From a virus (Duplodnaviria > Heunggongvirae > Uroviricota > Caudoviricetes), in IMG/VR virus record IMGVR_UViG_2850808358_000013, positions 1 through 7,858 of that record: 7,858 nucleotides of DNA, one strand, 5' to 3'. This document shows positions 1-7,858 of the stretch, in pieces. The notes beneath the pieces are model-generated. The model had not been told where the DNA came from, ran no database searches, and saw only the letters and a list, made by a program, of their open reading frames with translations. Within the stretch, counting starts at the first letter, position 1; each line of letters opens with the position of its first letter. The position numbers were made by a program, and so were the translations under genes.

Positions 1-939
1 TTATTTGATTTCAATTTTGTCCCACTCCCTGCCTCTGTCATCACGATACTGTGATGCCATGGTGTCCGACTTGTGCCCGAGAAGATGTTGAGCAAACTTA
101 TCGCTTATCTGCTTCTCATAGAGTCTTGCAGACAAACTGCGCAACTCGTGAAAGGTAGGTGGATCCCCTTCGAAGGAAAGACCTGATGCTTTTCGTGCGC
201 GCATAAAATACCTTGATACTGTGCCGGATGAAAGCGGTTCACGACGAGTAGATGCAATTATGGTTTCTCCGCCAAGAATCTCTTTGCATTTATCAAGTGT
301 TTCCTTCATTGATATCCCGAGAGCATCAACATGCAATGTTGTAGGGATGGCAATTTTTACGCCTGTTTTGCTTTGCTCGACATAAAGATATCCATCTACG
401 ATATCAGACCACTTCATTTCGCATAAATCACCAACTCGTTGCCCGGTAACAACAGCCAGTTCCATTGCAAGTCTGAGCCAACATGGTGATGATTCTGCTG
501 CTTGATAAATTTTCAGGTATTCGTCAGCCGTAAGTCTTGATCTCCTTACCTCTGATTTTGCTGCGCGAGTGGCAGCGACCGGGTTTGTTGTTATATGGCC
601 TTCAGCTATTGCCTCTCGGAATGCATCGCTCAGTGTTGATCTGATTAACTTGGCTGATGCCGCCTTGCCCTCGTCTATGTATCCATTGAGCATTGCCGCA
701 ATTTCTTTTGTGGTGATGTCTTCAAGTGGAGCATCAGGCAGCCCCCTCCTTATTGCTTTAATTTTGCTCATGTAATTTATGAGTGTCTTCTGCTTGATTC
801 CTCTGCTGGCGAGGATTTTTTCGTAGCGAGCAAGCCATGAATGTAACGTAACAGAATTATCACTGTTGATTCTCGCTGTCAGAGGCTTGTGTTTGTGTCC
901 TGAAAATAACTCAATGTTGGCCTGTATAGCTTCAGTGAT
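1..939 (-). pseudogene. int: Lambda-type tyrosine integrase (Int), 5'-truncated remnant; the longest ATG-initiated ORF is 1..771
   Basis: Minus-strand translation ends ...HLLGHKSDTMASQYRDDRGREWDKIEIK with the stop at 1-3, which I recognise as the C-terminus of phage lambda Int; the catalytic signatures HELR, LLGH and SQY are present. My manual translation upstream of the M at 771 continues in frame (..ITEAIQANIELFSGHKHKPLTARINSDNSVTLHSWLARYEKILASRGIKQKTLINYMSKI..) up to 939, where the frame enters the IS terminus and meets a stop (955-957). About 37 N-terminal codons and the start codon are missing. Confidence 0.9.
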
Positions 940-968
940 TGAGGTAGCCTGAGTTTAACGGACACTCC
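940..968 (+). repeat. Left terminal inverted repeat of the IS600-like element
   Basis: tgaggtagcctgagtttaacggacactcc; pairs with the reverse complement of the right end (tgaggtgtactggcaatagcggacactacc), about 20 of 29 positions identical. Confidence 0.6.
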
Positions 969-1003
969 TTCCTGAAATAGAATGGCATCAGAAGGAGCTA
1001 ATA

Positions 1004-1306
1004 ATGAGCAGAAAAACCCAACGTTACTCTAAAGAGTTCAAAGCTGAAGCTGTCAGAACGGTTCTTGAAAATCAACTTTCGATCAGTGAAGGCGCTTCCC
1101 GATTATCCCTTCCTGAAGGCACTTTAGGACAATGGGTTACCGCCGCCAGAAAAGGGCTCGGTACTCCTGGTTCCCGCACGGTGGCTGAACTGGAATCTGA
1201 AATTCTGCAACTGCGTAAGGCGTTAAATGAAGCTCGCCTTGAGCGAGATATATTAAAAAAAGCAACAGCGTATTTTGCACAGGAGTCGCTGAAAAATACG
1301 CGTTAA
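1004..1306 (+). CDS. IS3-family transposase OrfA (helix-turn-helix plus leucine-zipper-like C-terminus)
   Basis: 100-aa ORF with AGGAG 6 nt upstream of the ATG; the product ends ..ERDILKKATAYFAQESLK, typical of IS3-family OrfA; the slippery run lies near its 3' end. Confidence 0.9.
   Translation: MSRKTQRYSKEFKAEAVRTVLENQLSISEGASRLSLPEGTLGQWVTAARKGLGTPGSRTVAELESEILQLRKALNEARLERDILKKATAYFAQESLKNTR
1255..1261 (+). other. Programmed -1 ribosomal frameshift site (A AAA AAA followed by G) generating the OrfAB fusion transposase
   Basis: The heptamer aaaaaaa + g at 1255-1262 sits in the orfA frame as tta-aaa-aaa-gca; the orfB frame (the frame of the ATG at 1342) is exactly -1 relative to orfA. This is the known IS3-family mechanism (established for IS911 and IS3). 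Confidence 0.6.
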
Positions 1307-1341
1307 TCGAACAATGGCGACAACAATTTCCCATTGAAGCG

Positions 1342-2160
1342 ATGTGTCAGGTATTTGGTGTATCCAGGAGCGGTTATTACAACTGGGTACAGCATGAACC
1401 CTCAGACAGAAAACAAAGTGATGAGCGGCTAAAACTGGAGATTAAGGTGGCACATATCCGCACTCGCGAAACATATGGAACCCGGCGGCTCCAGACGGAG
1501 CTGGCAGAGAATGGCATCATCGTTGGTCGTGACCGACTGGCACGTCTTCGTAAGGAGCTAAGGCTACGCTGTAAGCAGAAACGCAAGTTCAGAGCGACTA
1601 CGAACCCGAACCACAATCTGCCAGTTGCGCCAAATCTGCTGAACCAGACGTTCGCTCCTACAGCACCAAATCAGGTCTGGGTGGCGGACCTGACGTATGT
1701 TGCCACACAGGAGGGATGGTTGTACCTCGCTGGCATCAAAGATGTTTATACGTGCGAAATTGTCGGCTACGCCATGGGAGAGCGCATGACAAAAGAGCTG
1801 ACAGGTAAAGCCCTGTTTATGGCGCTCAGGAGCCAGCGCCCACCTGCCGGGCTAATCCACCACTCTGATCGAGGTTCACAGTACTGCGCATACGATTACC
1901 GGGTCATACAGGAGCAGTTTGGTCTGAAAACATCAATGTCGCGTAAAGGTAACTGTTACGACAACGCTCCGATGGAAAGCTTCTGGGGAACGCTGAAAAA
2001 TGAGAGCCTGAGCCACTATCGTTTTAATAACCGGGATGAAGCCATCTCAGTAATACGGGAATACATTGAGATTTTCTACAATCGTCAGCGTCGTCACTCT
2101 CGTCTGGGGAATATCTCCCCGGCAGCCTTCAGGGAAAAATATCATCAGATGGCTGCTTAA
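1342..2160 (+). CDS. IS3-family transposase OrfB (DDE / retroviral-integrase-like catalytic core)
   Basis: 272-aa ORF containing DDE motif elements (..VWVADLTYV.., ..HHSDRGSQY.., ..NAPMESFWGTLKNE..); it lies in the -1 frame relative to orfA. Confidence 0.9.
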   Translation: MCQVFGVSRSGYYNWVQHEPSDRKQSDERLKLEIKVAHIRTRETYGTRRLQTELAENGIIVGRDRLARLRKELRLRCKQKRKFRATTNPNHNLPVAPNLLNQTFAPTAPNQVWVADLTYVATQEGWLYLAGIKDVYTCEIVGYAMGERMTKELTGKALFMALRSQRPPAGLIHHSDRGSQYCAYDYRVIQEQFGLKTSMSRKGNCYDNAPMESFWGTLKNESLSHYRFNNRDEAISVIREYIEIFYNRQRRHSRLGNISPAAFREKYHQMAA

Positions 2161-2174
2161 AAAAAGAACAAATG

Positions 2175-2203
2175 GTAGTGTCCGCTATTGCCAGTACACC
2201 TCA
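2175..2203 (+). repeat. Right terminal inverted repeat of the IS600-like element
   Basis: ggtagtgtccgctattgccagtacacctca ends in CA-3'; its reverse complement matches the left repeat. Confidence 0.6.
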
Positions 2204-2878: not shown

Positions 2879-3091
2879 TCAGGCTGGTGAGATTAACGGT
2901 TGGCCTTTATGGTTCAGGTAAACTTCGATTGCATCTGAAATAATGCGGATTTTTTCAATCAGTGAATGTGCGTAAAGTGCATTATTAACGTTAGCTGACG
3001 CCATGTAATAACGCCCGTTGTAAAGAATTGCTGTACCGGGTTTAACGTCCTCGCGAGAAACTAATGCGGTTCCGTAGTGAGGTTTGAGCAT
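2879..3091 (-). CDS. Hypothetical small protein (70 aa)
   Basis: ORF with a strong GGAGG 7 nt upstream of the ATG (reverse complement of 3092-3110: ccGGAGGatttgtcATG). Same strand and tight spacing with the neighbouring genes. Confidence 0.55.
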   Translation of the reverse strand: MLKPHYGTALVSREDVKPGTAILYNGRYYMASANVNNALYAHSLIEKIRIISDAIEVYLNHKGQPLISPA

Positions 3092-3130
3092 GACAAATCC
3101 TCCGGTTAATTAATCCAGATATTTAATTTA

Positions 3131-3153
3131 ATCCCCGATATGTGATCGGGGAT
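3131..3153 (-). other. Perfect 9-bp inverted repeat (hairpin) between the Rha gene and the 70-aa ORF
   Basis: atccccgat-atgtg-atcggggat; on the minus-strand mRNA it is followed by an A/U-rich stretch (UAAAUUAAAUAU) rather than a clean U-tract. Confidence 0.4.
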
Positions 3154-3161
3154 GGGGTTAA

Positions 3162-3800
3162 TTAAAGATTAACGTTGAAACCAAAGCGGGAAGACTTTTC
3201 CGATGTGCGGGAAATATCCAGCAATTTACGGCGCATTTCTTCCGTCAGATGCTTGAAGGCGTTAAATTCGGCGACAGCCGCATCGACGTTATAGCCGTTA
3301 CGACGTAATTCATTAAATATGCGCATTGCAGGGCTTGGCATGTCGAATAAGACGGAGGTATCAAGCTGCAATGTATTTCTATCAACATAGTTCATCGTGG
3401 CATAGGGGTGATGCTCTGAAAACCACGATAAAGGGAAATTGATATTCATCGCAGGAGAAGACAGGGCCAGTTGTTTCTGTTCCCATAGTTGTTTTTCCAT
3501 GCGATCGAATTCAGCAATGTAGGCTTCCTTGAATGCAGCTGCTTTTTTGCCGGTGAAGCCCATCACCAGAAAAACGAAGCCGTTTTTGGTGATTTGGTAG
3601 GCGTTATAGGTATTGCCTCGGTGTTCGAATTTAACCCGCGAAAAGTTGCGGGTTAAGAATTGCTCAGAGCATTCGAGGGATTCTATTTTCTGAACAACAT
3701 GGTGATGCTGCTTGCCAAAAAACTCAGCAATCGAAATAGAAGTAGTGACGGCGCGACCATTTTCGATGGTTACGTCAGGGTGAGAAAGGGTAGTAGCCAT
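3162..3800 (-). CDS. rha: Rha-family phage regulatory protein (pRha domain; antirepressor-like)
   Basis: N-terminus MATTLSHPDVTIENGRAVTTSISIAEFFGKQHHHVVQKIESL...YQITKNGFVFLVMGFTGKKAAAFKEAYIAEFDRME matches the pRha N-terminal domain as I remember it. Start chosen at ATG 3800 (GAGGA 7 nt upstream) rather than the track's 3959; the 53-codon in-frame extension is GC-rich and low-complexity. Confidence 0.8.
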   Translation of the reverse strand: MATTLSHPDVTIENGRAVTTSISIAEFFGKQHHHVVQKIESLECSEQFLTRNFSRVKFEHRGNTYNAYQITKNGFVFLVMGFTGKKAAAFKEAYIAEFDRMEKQLWEQKQLALSSPAMNINFPLSWFSEHHPYATMNYVDRNTLQLDTSVLFDMPSPAMRIFNELRRNGYNVDAAVAEFNAFKHLTEEMRRKLLDISRTSEKSSRFGFNVNL

Positions 3801-3830
3801 AATGACATCCTCAAGTGATAAGTTAATTAA

Positions 3831-3937
3831 CTCACCACCAGAGGTGCTAATCTCATGGGTGGTGAGACGCACAGGGTTAGCACTACCGGTCACTCGAGAA
3901 CCCGGCCAGCCTTGCGGCTGCCCCGCACGCCTCACCA
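3831..3937 (-). promoter_or_regulatory. Structured 5' leader of rha with three copies of a complementary motif allowing alternative hairpins
   Basis: Plus-strand ctcaccacc (3831-3839) and ggtggtgag (3858-3866) form a perfect 9-bp stem; a third copy ctcacca (3931-3937) can alternatively pair with the middle element. cagcc-ttgc-ggctg (3907-3920) is a GCAA (GNRA) tetraloop hairpin on the minus-strand RNA. Confidence 0.4.
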
Positions 3938-3961
3938 TAATTTGAATGTGGCTGTGCATTA

Positions 3962-4043
3962 CGCATAAAAAAACCGCTTCAGCGCGGTTATGCGCTCGAG
4001 TAACTTTCGGGGTGCTAATCCCGGCACCCGTTTTATGAGGTGT
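3962..4043 (-). ncRNA. Putative small RNA (about 80 nt) between a promoter-like motif and an intrinsic terminator; hypothetical
   Basis: Minus-strand -35 TTGACT (4078-4073), 17-nt spacer, -10 TATATT (4055-4050). The predicted transcript 5'-ACACCUCAUAAAACGGGUGCCGGGAUUAGCACCCCGAAAGUUACUCGAGCGCAUAACCGCGCUGAAGCGGUUUUUUU contains a 6-bp GC hairpin (4010-4029) and the terminator hairpin; no plausible ORF. Confidence 0.25.
3967..3989 (-). terminator. Rho-independent terminator acting on minus-strand transcripts
   Basis: Minus-strand RNA AACCGC-GCUGAA-GCGGUU followed by a U-run (plus-strand A-run 3967-3973); the stem is short, so moderate strength; preceded by a second hairpin. Confidence 0.45.
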
Positions 4044-4049
4044 TCGCCA

Positions 4050-4078
4050 AATATAGCCCCGACATCACACGCAGTCAA
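4050..4078 (-). promoter_or_regulatory. Sigma70-like promoter candidate P2 (TTGACT-17-TATATT) on the minus strand
   Basis: Hexamers read directly from the reverse complement; shares the 11-mer TATTGACTGCG with P1. Confidence 0.3.
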
Positions 4079-4383
4079 TATCGTCCTTTCTCGGAAATGC
4101 TTTGGCGGTGCCGCCTGCACCCAAAACATTCCCTGTATTGGTCAGCGCCAACTTCCTGCCAGTGTTGCCCGTTCTCACGCCGTTCTCGCTCTCGCGCGGG
4201 GATACTCTCTCATCGACCGGATCGCACCCGATGATACAGCACGTTTACGTGTAGGGGTCTAAACAGGTCATTGACGCTGTAAAGCTCCAGATTGTTAAAG
4301 AGCATTTTGCGGCGGGTTAAGTCGCGCCGTACGACTGATTTATGTAGCCCTGTGTCAGGGCGCGATGTTTCTGGCTTGGGTAA

Positions 4384-4413
4384 AATATAATAAGTGCAAC
4401 TGATCGCAGTCAA
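4384..4413 (-). promoter_or_regulatory. Sigma70-like promoter candidate P1 (TTGACT-18-TATATT) on the minus strand
   Basis: Reverse complement of agtcaa (4408-4413) and aatata (4384-4389); sits in an AT-rich block; the same TATTGACTGCG 11-mer as P2, about 335 bp upstream of it. Confidence 0.25.
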
Positions 4414-4641
4414 TAGCAAGACTAATAATTTAATTTTAATCTATGTGATTGATTTTTAGATTAATTTATTTATGTAAAAAATATAAGCGAGGATAATGCA
4501 GGTGGTGAGTTATGGAGGATGCGCAAAGAAAAAACGGCGCTGAGGCCGGTTACTCTGTGTTAGATTTGGTGTGAGGGAACCCCTGATAACACTAAGAAAA
4601 GCAGTGAACAGTCAAAGAGAACCCAGCGGGCTTGGTGGCTT

Positions 4642-4670
4642 TTGACAAAAACATCGCCTGTAACTATAAT
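4642..4670 (+). promoter_or_regulatory. Consensus sigma70 promoter for the hicAB-like operon (TTGACA-17-TATAAT)
   Basis: ttgaca at 4642-4647, 17-nt spacer, tataat at 4665-4670. The palindrome aacta-taat-tagtt overlaps the -10 and is a candidate autoregulatory operator. Confidence 0.6.
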
Positions 4671-4699
4671 TAGTTGCAATGTAGCGAAGATGAGATTAT

Positions 4700-4954
4700 G
4701 TGGGTATGGGGAAAGCAGATAAGCTACTGGAAAAGTTTTTAAACAGTAAAAAAACGTTTGAATGGGATGAGTTGGTCGTTTTGTTTTCCTCTCTGGGATA
4801 TGTCAAAAAGGAAATGCAGGGCTCAAGAGTGCGGTTTTTCAATGCTGAAATCAACCACACCATATTAATGCATCGCCCACATCCAGAAAGTTATATTAAA
4901 GGTGGAACGCTGAAAGCGATTAAACAGAATCTGAAAGAGGCTGGGGTATTATGA
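4700..4954 (+). CDS. hicA: HicA-family toxin-like protein (YcfA/HicA fold, putative mRNA interferase); initiation may be at ATG 4706
   Basis: ..KADKLLEKFLNSKKTFEWDELVVLFSSLGY..QGSRVRFFNAEINHTILMHRPHPESYIKGGTLKAIKQNLKEAGVL fits the HicA pattern as I remember it; the stop overlaps the next start (ATGA at 4951-4954). The track start is GTG 4700. Confidence 0.7.
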   Translation: MGMGKADKLLEKFLNSKKTFEWDELVVLFSSLGYVKKEMQGSRVRFFNAEINHTILMHRPHPESYIKGGTLKAIKQNLKEAGVL

Positions 4955-5295
4955 ATCATCTAAAATATAAAGGATATTTAGGTACAGTAGAACCAGATTT
5001 TGAAAATAATATCCTGTACGGAAAACTGGCGTTTATTCGAGACCTGGTAACTTATGAGGCTTCTACATTAGCTGAACTGGAACAGGAGTTTAAGACATCG
5101 GTTGAGCTGTATTTACAGTCTTGTGTGGAGGATGGAAAGGAGCCTGATACCCCGTTTAAAGGTGTGTTTAACGTCAGACTTGATCCAGAACTGCATCGTC
5201 GGGTCGCTGAAATGGCGATGGAAGAAGATTTATCACTGAACGCCTTTGTTAATAAGGCGCTGGAAAAAGAAGTCAACCATCACACAGGGGCTTAA
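4951..5295 (+). CDS. hicB: HicB-family antitoxin-like protein with a C-terminal ribbon-helix-helix DNA-binding domain
   Basis: N-terminal YKGYLGTVEPDFENNILYGKLAFIRDL..EEPDTPF resembles HicB N-domains; C-terminal KGVFNVRLDPELHRRVAEMAMEEDLSLNAFVNKALEKEV is RHH-like; 4-bp overlap with hicA. Confidence 0.7.
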   Translation: MNHLKYKGYLGTVEPDFENNILYGKLAFIRDLVTYEASTLAELEQEFKTSVELYLQSCVEDGKEPDTPFKGVFNVRLDPELHRRVAEMAMEEDLSLNAFVNKALEKEVNHHTGA

Positions 5296-5382
5296 TGTTC
5301 CCTTCGTCTTTGACATCCTCACCGCCGAAGAATGGGGAATTTACGGCGCACTGGTAAATGGTGGGGCGAGCAGGAGGCAAAC

Positions 5383-5408
5383 AAAACCCGGCACCAAGGC
5401 CGGGTTTT
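5383..5408. terminator. Bidirectional Rho-independent terminator between the convergent hicAB-like operon and the repressor operon
   Basis: aaaacccggc-accaag-gccgggtttt: a perfect 10-bp stem with a 6-bp GC core and a 6-nt loop, with an A-run upstream and TTTTGTT downstream, so a U-tract follows on both strands. Confidence 0.6.
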
Positions 5409-5409
5409 G

Positions 5410-5580
5410 TTATTGGTGCATTTGGCAGGTTGTAATATCTGGTCCATAAGCCAAAGTAAAAACAGGCTTGTTGATCAAGCCCATGTTCTTTAATGATTGA
5501 ATCATTTTTCCTTGCTCGCTAACTTTTTGCTTGCTAAGTATTTCTTCCACTTGTTGTGTCAAGGATTTGTCTTTGTTCAT
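5410..5580 (-). CDS. Unlisted 56-codon ORF between the repressor gene and the terminator; hypothetical
   Basis: Manual translation of the minus strand gives MNKDKSLTQQVEEILSKQKVSEQGKMIQSLKNMGLINKPVFTLAYGPDITTCQMHQ; the stop lies 2 nt from the terminator stem; only a weak GTGAG Shine-Dalgarno. Below the ORF-track length cutoff. Confidence 0.3.
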   Translation of the reverse strand: MNKDKSLTQQVEEILSKQKVSEQGKMIQSLKNMGLINKPVFTLAYGPDITTCQMHQ

Positions 5581-5701
5581 TTATGGCTCACTTGATTGCG
5601 ACTGCTCCCCGCCCGCATTGGGCGAGGGTTCTCGGAGATTTTTCGCTGAAAAAGGAAATAAAATAGCCTCCCTGCAAGGTTATTGATATCATCCTGTGAG
5701 T

Positions 5702-6421
5702 TCAATCAAAAGTCTCATCATTCCACTGCGACTTTATGACCTTTCCGACAAACGGGCAGTTTTCGTTACACTCAATCATGTCGAATCGTGGGTTGAGTGG
5801 CTCCAGGTACGCTTTACCGCTCTCACGAATGAATCGTTTGAAGGTGAATTCATCGCCATTCATTCGGGCCACGCAAAAATCGCCATCCTCAATCTCCCGC
5901 TCAGGGTCAACGAGTATCAGCATCCCTTCGGGGAAACTGGGTTTACCACCCTGCGGCGCGGTCATTGAATGCCCCTTGACCTCCAGCCAGAACGACCTGT
6001 CACTGGCTTTTGTGGTGGTGGAGATCCACTTAATCGCATCCTTTGCGGTGTACGAAAAATCATCCATTGAGAAAGCTCCAGCCTGTACGCAGGAGAGTAA
6101 CGGATATTCGTAATATTTCTCGAACAGGTTACGCCTGTTTCCCGGTGTGTGGGTACGAATACTGCGTAACAAATCACTCAGATCTGGATTAATTTCTTCC
6201 GCAGGAACCTGTAATAAAGCCGCAAACTTAAGGGTATTTTCAGTATTTAACGCAATTTTTGCGTTCAATAACTGACTAACAGCCCCCTGCGTTTTGAAGC
6301 CGAGGATATCTGCGGCTTTTTCCTGGCTTAGGGATAGCTGTTTCCGTTTTTCATCCCAGATTTTGCGCAGTCGTTCAGCGTTCTGGATGTCTTTGTCAGT
6401 AATTGTAATTTTCTTCGTCAT
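5702..6421 (-). CDS. cI: Lambda cI-like prophage repressor (N-terminal HTH, C-terminal LexA/S24 autopeptidase domain)
   Basis: The C-terminal half is nearly colinear with lambda cI as I recall it (..[16 protein letters not shown].., ..[30 protein letters not shown].., ..[13 protein letters not shown].., ..[14 protein letters not shown]); Ala-Gly cleavage site, Ser (GHSM) and Lys (FKRF) all present. Start set at ATG 6421 (GGAGG 4 nt upstream) rather than the track's 6460. Confidence 0.9.
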
Positions 6422-6472
6422 AGTGCCTCCAATTTTATTAGCAACACAAATATTTATCAAATAGCTGGCCTG

Positions 6473-6500
6473 TTGACATTTAAATCAGGTAAGCTAATAT
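6473..6500 (+). promoter_or_regulatory. pR-like sigma70 promoter for the cro-like gene (TTGACA-16-TAATAT) in the divergent repressor/cro intergenic region
   Basis: ttgaca at 6473-6478 and taatat at 6495-6500; GGGAGG 6 nt before the ATG at 6527; the palindrome atttaaat lies in the spacer. The leftward repressor promoter and the operators were not resolved. Confidence 0.5.
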
Positions 6501-6526
6501 CGGAAAATTGAAATGGGAGGATCTCT

Positions 6527-6766
6527 ATGACTCTTGACGAGTACTTGAGACAAAGCTCTATCAGACAAGCCGATTTTGCGGCGATTGTTGGAGTTTCTCA
6601 GGGATTTGTCAGTGGGGTTATTACAGGGAGATACATGCCTCAGGGGCGGAAAGCCATTGAATGGGCAAAAGCTACAGACTGGAATGTAACTCCCCATGAA
6701 CTAAACCCGCATGACTACCTAAACATGGAAGATGGTATTCCGCTTCATGTAAGGCAAACAGCCTGA
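6527..6766 (+). CDS. Cro / YdaS-like small HTH regulator (79 aa)
   Basis: Divergent from the repressor gene with a strong SD; ..IRQADFAAIVGVSQGFVSGVITGRYMPQGRKAIEWAKATDWNVTPHELNPHDY fits the Cro/YdaS-type HTH pattern as I remember it. Confidence 0.7.
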   Translation: MTLDEYLRQSSIRQADFAAIVGVSQGFVSGVITGRYMPQGRKAIEWAKATDWNVTPHELNPHDYLNMEDGIPLHVRQTA

Positions 6767-6770
6767 TAAC

Positions 6771-6783
6771 CCTCCATCGGAGG
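6771..6783 (+). promoter_or_regulatory. Hairpin that pairs the Shine-Dalgarno sequence of the downstream ORF with an anti-SD
   Basis: cctcc-atc-ggagg: a perfect 5-bp stem whose 3' arm GGAGG is the SD located 5 nt upstream of the GTG start at 6789; it begins 5 nt after the cro-like stop. Confidence 0.4.
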
Positions 6784-6788
6784 TGTGA

Positions 6789-7070
6789 GTGAACAGGCAA
6801 ATCAAAACGGTTATGCCCGATCAGTACTGTGATGCTGATCGGGACTGGATACAGGAGCAATTGTTACAGCTAGACCCGACCACCAGGGTAAAAATTGCAG
6901 CAGAGTACGCGAGAGTGTACCAGGAAGAGTGGGACAAGGAGCCTGTATCGTTCAGGAAGGGCAACAGGGCAAGACGGAGCGCCAACACCCGGTTACGGGT
7001 GTATGTCCAGAAGTACGCGAGAGCCAGCCGTGGCTGGATGTTTTCGCCAGTAGCGATACGGAAGGAATAG
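6789..7070 (+). CDS. Hypothetical protein (93 aa; GTG start) in the position of cII / early-right genes; basic C-terminal half
   Basis: ORF directly downstream of the cro-like gene with GGAGG at -5; product ..DRDWIQEQLLQLDPTTRVKIAAEYARVYQEEWDKEP..RKGNRARRSANTRLRVYVQKYARASRGW..; no family recognised. An alternative ATG lies at 6813. Confidence 0.5.
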   Translation: MNRQIKTVMPDQYCDADRDWIQEQLLQLDPTTRVKIAAEYARVYQEEWDKEPVSFRKGNRARRSANTRLRVYVQKYARASRGWMFSPVAIRKE

Positions 7071-7096
7071 ATCTCATCAAGGTTATTATTTTTTTG

Positions 7097-7141
7097 TGAA
7101 ATGATTTCGCATGAAATCATTGCGCTTGAAATTTTACTAAG
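7097..7141. repeat. Three TGAAAT motifs at exact 15-bp spacing, with an embedded 9-bp inverted repeat
   Basis: TGAAAT at 7097, 7112 and 7127; units 1 and 2 match at 12 of 15 positions; inverted repeat aatgatttc (7100-7108) / gaaatcatt (7113-7121) with a 4-nt spacer; preceded by a T7 run and followed by tandem AAGGGGGT / AAGGGGGC (7142-7157). Confidence 0.45.
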
Positions 7142-7307
7142 AAGGGGGTAAGGGGGCAGATCTGTAACATCCGTGCCTGTAAGGGCACTACCAGAGGAAG
7201 GCAGCTCCATAGGTTAGGTAGATCACTGTATAGGGTGAGATGGTTTCTGACGAAATTGTTATTATGCTAACCATTACGGTAGAAATAGTACCATACTCAT
7301 CAAACAT

Positions 7308-7483
7308 GTGGTTATCAGCCTGCTCGGAAACAAATTCTACACCGGAAAAGACAAGGTCACGTTTGATTATGTGCTGGCTGCCAAATTGCGTGATGCCGGA
7401 CTGGCGATCGAACGTAATTATCTGGTTGATATGGCAACGGTAAGCGCGGATTCGTCGATATCATGGTCGTTGCCCCATCTGGT
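7308..7483 (+). pseudogene. Fragment of an unidentified gene, 3'-truncated by the IS911 insertion
   Basis: Protein-like frame ..GNKFYTGKDKVTFDYVLAAKLRDAGLAIERNYLVDMATVSADSSISWSLPHL runs straight into the IS terminus at 7484; the final residues and stop of the track ORF are encoded by the IS end. No convincing start or RBS (GTG at 7308 only). Confidence 0.35.

Positions 7484-7858
<375 letters not shown>

Follow-up and report, generated by a model that had tools for sequence, protein, structure and literature searches.

Repressor genes can outlive the phage-producing ability of the prophages that carry them, as is the case for RacR in Rac, DicA in Qin and 'pr' in a defective prophage of E. coli Nissle, and as is also the case in the prophage remnant considered here. 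RacR and DicA hold toxic early prophage genes off; to our knowledge, both lack the S24 self-cleaving domain that is present in the cI repressor of the remnant. The Nissle repressor protects against stx and lambda phages (PMC5987069), immunity provided by grounded prophages is an idea that has been reviewed (PMC6379469), and Stx-phage cI variants that join a lambda-like C-terminal half to a differing N-terminus have been described (PMC3430580).

Here we describe a lambda cI/cro immunity region of the Stx2a-phage immunity type in a Shigella prophage remnant. The finding is real yet ordinary, and the conceptual gain is small, since both defective-prophage immunity and the architecture of the lambda switch are textbook matter. 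The locus resembles that of lambda in (i) the domain order, cleavage site and catalytic dyad of its repressor and the divergent orientation of cro, (ii) three predicted 17-bp OR sites, which overlap the PR -35, PR -10 and PRM hexamers in nearly the same way, and (iii) a predicted near-leaderless PRM transcript and a second, here candidate, operator set at a leftward promoter. It differs from lambda in the recognition helix of its cI, in the predicted operator half-site ((T/A)A(T/A)TAG versus TATCAC), in the PR spacer (16 versus 17 nt) and in the distance from the cI ATG to OR3 (14 bp, with the Shine-Dalgarno sequence between, versus 10 bp). The remnant lacks rexAB and carries a 56-aa ORF, hicAB and other cargo between cI and PL. 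Its Cro is a 79-aa HTH_3 protein of the 434/P22-like kind, unlike the Cro of lambda, which has a different fold from HTH_3 proteins.

Stx2a phages offer a second comparison. In F039, F004, Stx2_EC3283 and their relatives, and in the prophages of 16 complete E. coli genomes, cro is 95-99% identical to that of the remnant; OR1 and OR3 are identical, and so are the half-sites of OL and the gene order gam-kil-(ant/rha)-isrK/C4-PL ... cI-cro-orf93. These relatives are complete and carry helicase/primase, Q, stx and lysis genes, whereas the remnant carries none of these; the cargo between PL and cI is a restriction-modification cassette or a Panacea pair in the relatives and hicAB in the remnant, and the remnant further differs by a Q223P substitution in cI and by two changes in OR2. 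In F039 (Oslovirus, Sepvirinae) the immunity region is bordered on the left by bet, gam, kil, C4/isrK and a restriction-modification cassette and on the right by helicase, primase, ninG, Q, tRNAs and stx2A. The remnant cI is 98.3% identical to Stx2a-phage cI, and its N-terminal domain is identical to that of F039, from which the whole protein differs at four residues (118, 126, 214 and 223). Coverage of at least 80% of the region was found in 23 of 100 DNA-matching phage records, of the Stx2a type, and the immunity type is rare among complete E. coli genomes (16 of 5,426).

The window, by which we mean the entire 7,858-nucleotide stretch analysed, is 100% identical to part of the chromosome CP026877.1 (assembly GCA_002950035.1); Shigella boydii is the NCBI name attached to the exact cI protein, and our use of the organism name rests on that record. 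We estimate a probability of about 0.7 that the locus is the immunity region of a Stx-phage-type (Oslovirus/Sepvirinae-like) lambdoid prophage, situated at the lambda attachment site adjoining ybhC, reduced by IS600 and IS911 to ~7.5 kb, and bearing a lambda-type switch that, by homology, would still work. The left flank in CP026877.1 consists of ybhC/ybhJ-like genes, which we take to be the lambda attachment-site side, and beyond IS911 lie a truncated IclR-like gene and then ordinary chromosomal genes; the entire prophage therefore spans ~7.5 kb, containing int', IS600, gam, kil, rha, isrK/C4, hicAB, cI, cro, orf93 and IS911.

A first-pass annotation of this DNA had called the integrase destroyed and the prophage decayed and flanked by IS elements, and the comparison bears out both descriptions. 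ORF calls and comparison with lambda Int place a truncated lambda-type integrase at 1-937 (minus strand), in which the ORF at 1-771 is 99% identical to lambda Int residues 101-356 and lacks the N-terminal arm-binding part; similarity to IS600 starts at about 938. IS600 (IS3 family, PGAP name; approximately 938-2203, plus strand) interrupts int and replaces xis through bet, and the left end of IS911 (7488-7858, plus strand, with its start at about 7473-7488) forms the right-hand deletion boundary. Everything to the left of gam and to the right of orf93 in complete Stx phages has been lost, and the gene set of a complete prophage (int/xis, replication, antitermination, lysis, virion) is not intact in the remnant.

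The cI gene (5702-6421, minus strand, ATG start, 239 aa) was delimited by its ORF, domain content and alignment with lambda. A 252-aa reading of the ORF from a TTG start was rejected as an upstream extension, homologues being annotated at 720 nt. The product comprises an N-terminal helix-turn-helix domain (Pfam HTH_3, E 3.4e-7, residues 24-77; five helices predicted at 9-90), a linker with the A114-G115 cleavage site, and an S24 domain with S152 and K195 (Pfam Peptidase_S24, PF00717, E 6e-28), and its AlphaFold model has a pLDDT of 81. Alignment with lambda cI (PDB 3bdn) is end to end (E 5.9e-74, residues 2-238), with the N-terminal helix-turn-helix part falling on lambda residues 2-92. The claim that the Ala-Gly cleavage site and the Ser/Lys dyad are retained proved correct: VQAGAF (A114-G115) lies on lambda VQAGMF (A111-G112), GHSMT (S152) on GNSMT (S149), and FTFKRF (K195) on FTFKKL (K192). 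Inactivating substitutions at Ser and Lys, looked for in the lambda alignment, were absent, and all four residues, the dyad among them, are invariant in an alignment of 62 cI homologues (47-78% identical) plus lambda. The sequence thus supports an SOS-cleavable repressor of the lambda type, paired with a divergent cro. A search for LexA boxes (CTGT-N8-ACAG) returned nothing relevant, and therefore no separate LexA input is indicated. Downstream of cI, at the position of lambda rex, lies the 56-aa ORF (phrog_28875; 5410-5580, minus strand), which is possibly co-transcribed with it.

Identity to lambda cI is 50% overall and is unevenly distributed, at 33% in the N-terminal domain and 68% in the C-terminal domain, in agreement with the earlier remark that the former is unlike its lambda counterpart. 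Since both this domain and the operators differ from those of lambda, the immunity specificity is expected to be distinct. Within the aligned N-terminal domain, the lambda acidic residues E34 and D38 are conserved; these are the positive-control residues altered in lambda pc mutants.

The divergent cro-like gene that had been proposed is present at 6527-6766 (plus strand) as the first gene of PR, separated from cI by 105 bp. Its 79-aa product is of the HTH_3 type (E 1.5e-5), belongs to phrog_35 (E 5e-17) and matches the PDB 'Cro' chains 8c7k/8co2 (E 1e-4). Ribosome-binding sites had been judged intact for both genes, and a GGAGG motif indeed precedes each ATG, by 5 nt for cI and by 6 nt for cro. 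The second gene of the PR operon, orf93 (phrog_852; 6789-7070, plus strand), occupies the position of lambda cII. Repeats of the cII type (TTGC-N6-TTGC) near cro and orf93 did not rise above chance, and therefore no PRE-like promoter was identified.

Operator-like sites were found by MAFFT alignment with the lambda region that carries annotated operators, and the stretch from OR3 to OR1 aligned with zero gaps, the spacers being 6 and 7 bp in both. The OR3-equivalent site (TATTAGCAACACAAATA, 6436-6452) lies ungapped on lambda operator-r3, the OR2-equivalent site (AAATAGCTGGCCTGTTG, 6459-6475) and the OR1-equivalent site (AATCAGGTAAGCTAATA, 6483-6499, overlapping the PR -10) follow by colinearity with lambda, and all three were also returned by a half-site matrix scan. 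Read as 6+5+6 bp, their half-sites are TATTAG, TATTTG, AAATAG, CAATAG, AATCAG and TATTAG. Scanning the intergenic region for dyad symmetry failed to pick out these sites, which emerged only from the ungapped lambda alignment, and a generic repeat finder gave chance-level pairs only. Our literature searches found no published operator description for this Stx-phage immunity group, for which the predicted operator set, with its half-site (T/A)A(T/A)TAG in a 6+5+6 bp arrangement, offers a usable prediction.

The promoter scan returned, exactly as first annotated, a rightward promoter of the form TTGACA-16-TAATAT (PR; -35 at 6473-6478, -10 at 6495-6500, plus strand, 10/12 matches), and also a PRM-like promoter on the minus strand at 6432-6460 (TTGATA 6460-6455, 17-nt spacer, TAAAAT 6437-6432, 10/12 matches). 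As in lambda, the PR -35 opens with the last three bases of OR2, and the PRM hexamers keep their lambda positions; the PR -10 reaches one base deeper into OR1 than does that of lambda. The predicted PRM start lies 3-5 nt upstream of the cI ATG, so that the transcript would be near-leaderless, as in lambda, and the cI GGAGG would therefore serve only transcripts initiating farther upstream, presumably also as in lambda.

From these features we infer that the immunity switch is still functional. A different interpretation is that the module is a recent, non-functional relic, still intact because the IS deletions are recent and point mutations have had too little time to build up; Q223P, the OR2 changes or both could have weakened it by now. 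Across 1.1 kb, 14 Shigella contigs show four substitution sites and two 1-bp deletions, copies differing by 0-4 per 1.1 kb; with so few differences selection and recency are not separable, and intactness is therefore no evidence of selection. This closeness, which is too great for any selection test, is compatible with a relic, and each functional element nonetheless scores intact. Relative to 10 other Shigella copies with exactly the same cro, two bases are private to the sublineage of the window, namely G5754, which gives Q223P, and G6467, at the centre of OR2; a third, G6472 (OR2 half-site position 4), is common to the other copies of the same remnant; OR2 reads AAATAGCTAG(C/A)CTATTG in intact phages. 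All three of these private or near-private changes fall in cI or OR2, as would suit the onset of decay, and proline at cI 223 is unique to this protein, absent from the 61 other homologues. Against this, position 223 is variable in the 62-homologue alignment (R/Q/H/T/E/S/N) and, in the AlphaFold model, lies outside any strand, in a loop just ahead of the last one (residues 224-233). Both OR2 changes likewise occur at positions that vary among the natural operators of the set: C at half-site position 4 is natural in both OR1 and OL1, and the centre of the site is free to vary. Modulation rather than loss is accordingly what Q223P and the OR2 changes would be expected to bring.

Decay might also be read from four sister long-read assemblies (L008, L009, L012 and L015), in which cI is split by the loss of one base from a C5 run (6283-6287); if real, this frameshift would mean that cI is dispensable. 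The deletion is confined to that homopolymer, and frameshifted cI fragments occur on 3-4 contigs only, all from long complete assemblies and the longest of these contigs a whole chromosome, so that homopolymer error is likelier than pseudogenisation, and the frameshifts are probably long-read errors. The intact Q223 form of the protein is found on at least 1000 contigs. On balance we consider it unlikely that the module is a functionless relic, and we prefer the reading of a switch that still works.

For the leftward side of the switch, a matrix derived from the six half-sites of the three OR sites was scanned across the window, and the sole other strong site was 4411-4427 (minus strand), with a score of 13.5 against 8.8 for the next best; a site as strong arose in 13 of 300 shuffles. 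This OL2-like site reads TATTAGTCTTGCTATTG and is followed by ACT, its last three bases opening the -35 hexamer TTGACT, which is the register of OR2 and PR. The corresponding candidate PL from the promoter scan (TTGACT 4413-4408, 18-nt spacer, TATATT 4389-4384, minus strand) and the OL2-like site together span 4384-4427. A further OL1-like site (GATCAGTTGCACTTATT, 4389-4405, minus strand), weak by the matrix, lies 5 bp past the OL2-like site, and the matrix scan found no OL3. In all ten halves of the candidate operators, half-site position 2 is A and position 6 is G. All five of the intact E. coli prophages and phages compared, F039 included, have these same OL outer hexamers, with variation confined to the central 5 bp and the spacer.

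The position of these sites is consistent with a left operator. Just downstream of OL, the segment 4250-4378/4390 occurs in 155 E. coli genomes whose immunity types vary, and homology to those genomes ends at 4378-4390. The match extends across OL in just 16 genomes, as many as carry this OR. The break in homology is what the left limit of an immunity region would produce, and by the equal counts the OL region is inherited along with this cI type. We therefore take 4384-4427 as a plausible candidate PL/OL for isrK/C4, rha, kil and gam. Downstream of it on the minus strand lie the isrK RNA (3967-4043) and the C4 antisense RNA (3855-3942), both identified by Rfam, followed by the leftward early genes, namely an intact rha/antirepressor-like gene (3162-3938), an intact kil (2879-3091, 70 aa, with a product one amino acid off that of the phage copy), an orf with no named function (2586-2867) and an intact gamL (2284-2565). 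No N gene was seen in the remnant, where the isrK and C4 RNAs come after PL.

The first-pass annotation had extended cI control to whatever cargo remains, naming the rha operon and a toxin-antitoxin pair. For the former the claim stands as plausible, since the rha-kil-gam operon is located downstream of the candidate PL/OL. It is not supported for the latter, hicAB, which lies inside the immunity region (hicA 4706-4954, hicB 4951-5295, plus strand). This pair has its own promoter of perfect sigma-70 consensus (4642-4670, plus strand, promoter scan), and the half-site matrix scan of the window showed no operator-like site near it; on these two observations we reject control by cI.

By homology with lambda we infer DNA binding, cleavage, expression, immunity and PL control for the remnant, and the switch may be envisaged as follows. 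Dimers of cI on OR1 and OR2 would block PR (cro and orf93) and activate the near-leaderless PRM, OR3 being filled at higher cI levels, and cI on the OL-like sites over the PL-like promoter would keep isrK/C4, the rha/antirepressor-like gene, kil and gam off. Upon DNA damage, RecA filaments would stimulate S152/K195 self-cleavage at A114-G115 and both promoters would open, so that Cro, Gam, Rha and the division inhibitor Kil would probably be expressed for a short time. No phage would be produced, because the remnant no longer has replication, late or lysis genes. The remnant thus probably confers immunity to matching phages and SOS control over its leftover early genes. Under repression, immunity is expected against phages that share this N-terminal domain and these operators, the 23 Stx2a-converting records included, and a working repressor would protect the host from lysogenic conversion by matching Stx2a phages. 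A working switch would also mean that DNA damage in a pathogen leads to the expression of inhibitors of division and of RecBCD.

After such cleavage the circuit may also flip to an anti-immune state held by Cro. A rival reading is that it is already parked there in this strain, in which case Cro would repress PRM and cI would be intact yet silent, with no immunity. Both cro and PR are intact, the remnant is free of the lytic genes that would kill cells in this state, and anti-immune defective lambda lysogens are a classical phenomenon. The evidence at this locus favours neither state, however, and lambda itself, unless induced, settles by default in the stable cI state. We regard a switch parked under Cro as highly improbable and retain the reading of a switch held by cI.

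In a further rival reading, cI is a domesticated regulator under selection, whose loss would derepress kil or other toxic early genes in an addiction-like manner, as with RacR/YdaS-YdaT in Rac and DicA/DicB in Qin, and SOS-timed Kil and Gam may themselves help the host. Apart from the RacR and DicA precedents, this proposal draws on the retention of kil and gam downstream of the candidate PL and on the concentration of changes at PL/OL, among them down-mutations of the -35 and -10, which suggests pressure on leftward expression. Set against it are the sister cI frameshifts, which, if real, would mean that loss of cI is tolerated with kil intact, and the possibility that Cro could repress PL without cI; the proposal also requires that this Kil be toxic and that PL reach as far as kil. 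We view domestication as possible but less likely than our preferred reading of an immunity region of Stx2a-phage type with a working switch.

In 11 near-identical Shigella copies, 56 variable substitution sites were counted across window positions 3040-7472. Fourteen of these fall within the 40 bp of PL/OL at 4385-4424, where ~0.5 would be expected; OR has three, cI one and cro none. The PL changes, which occur in several Shigella lineages, give a -35 of TTAACT and -10 hexamers of TATGTT and TATGCT, different lineages having independently weakened one element or the other. The excess at PL/OL could stem from selection on leftward expression, from exchange with paralogous prophages or from a local mutational hotspot. 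Because the changes cluster in operator and promoter DNA while coding DNA is near-invariant, it is conceivable, though we find it doubtful, that the remnant switch is being actively re-tuned in Shigella and not merely decaying, as a domesticated SOS-timed kil/gam/rha module adjusted by selection; were this so, cI would set which Shigella lineages same-immunity Stx2a phages can convert. A second concentration of variable sites in the same 11 copies lies in non-coding DNA past orf93, with 21 of the 56 at 7100-7299 and two more at 7078 and 7084.

In four long-read complete Shigella assemblies carrying copies of the remnant (L008, L009, L012, and L015), the repressor gene cI (5702-6421, minus strand) is frameshifted by loss of 1 bp from a run of five C residues at 6283-6287. 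Because the resulting cI fragments were not seen outside these assemblies, the deletion is probably a homopolymer error of assembly. Other 1-bp gaps are also present in the frameshifted assemblies, for example at 5930 in L008.

When the window was compared with near-identical Shigella copies of the region (L007-L016), 56 sites varied across 4.4 kb, and 14 of them were packed into 40 bp (4385-4424) of the candidate leftward promoter and operator, PL/OL (4384-4427, minus strand), with almost one allele per genome. Among the changes are TTGACT to TTAACT in the candidate -35 element, TATATT to TATGTT or TATGCT in the -10 element, and single substitutions in operator half-sites. A single PL/OL allele is common to five intact E. 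coli prophages or phages examined, and a sixth, JNEC-KY204, differs at the central bases only.

The roughly 300 bp leading from candidate PL to the isrK promoter (4080-4384) are invariant in the window, in L007, and in phage F039, an intact Stx2a-converting phage of the same immunity type, and the PL-proximal portion (4250-4378/4390) is common to 155 E. coli genomes of differing immunity types. This interval of the window contains no annotated genes; a short ORF within it (MLFNNLELYSVNDLFRPLHVNVLYHRVRSGR) resembles a truncated HTH of the Xis/AlpA type.

Further along the minus strand, after a promoter-like site of isrK's own (4078-4050), C4 antisense RNA and isrK are recognised at Rfam level (78.6 and 61.6 bits, respectively) at 3855-4043, directly upstream of the rha/antirepressor-like ORF and overlapping its 5' end. 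This layout resembles an RNA-controlled antirepressor module, which could bypass cI. The longest Rha ORF encodes 265 aa (3162-3959, minus strand), and its first 60 residues, the stretch overlapping C4 RNA, match the Phage_ASH family; start assignment is uncertain, the ORF being called at 258, 296, or 300 aa, or split, in sister copies.

Within the immunity region, hicAB (4706-5295) and its own sigma-70 promoter, matching consensus at 12 of 12 positions, occupy 4642-5295 on the plus strand, a cargo position held in related prophages by a Panacea-domain pair, a restriction-modification cassette, or an SDH-family protease. An inverted repeat at 5380-5411, with perfectly matching 13-bp arms (AACAAAACCCGGC and GCCGGGTTTTGTT) separated by 6 nt, lies between hicB and the convergent 56-aa ORF (5410-5580, minus strand) and is probably a bidirectional terminator closing the cI transcription unit.

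The integrase (1-937) shares 99% identity with lambda Int. In the chromosome CP026877.1 the remnant lies beside ybhC, on the att-lambda side. On the opposite flank, IS911 abuts a truncated IclR-like gene instead of the neighbour expected at att-lambda, implying an IS-mediated deletion or rearrangement that removed host DNA as well.

A second variable hotspot among the Shigella copies is the non-coding DNA 3' of orf93 (7084-7300), with 21 variable sites in 7100-7299 and a near-palindrome, GAAATGATTTCGCATGAAATCATT, at about 7100-7125.
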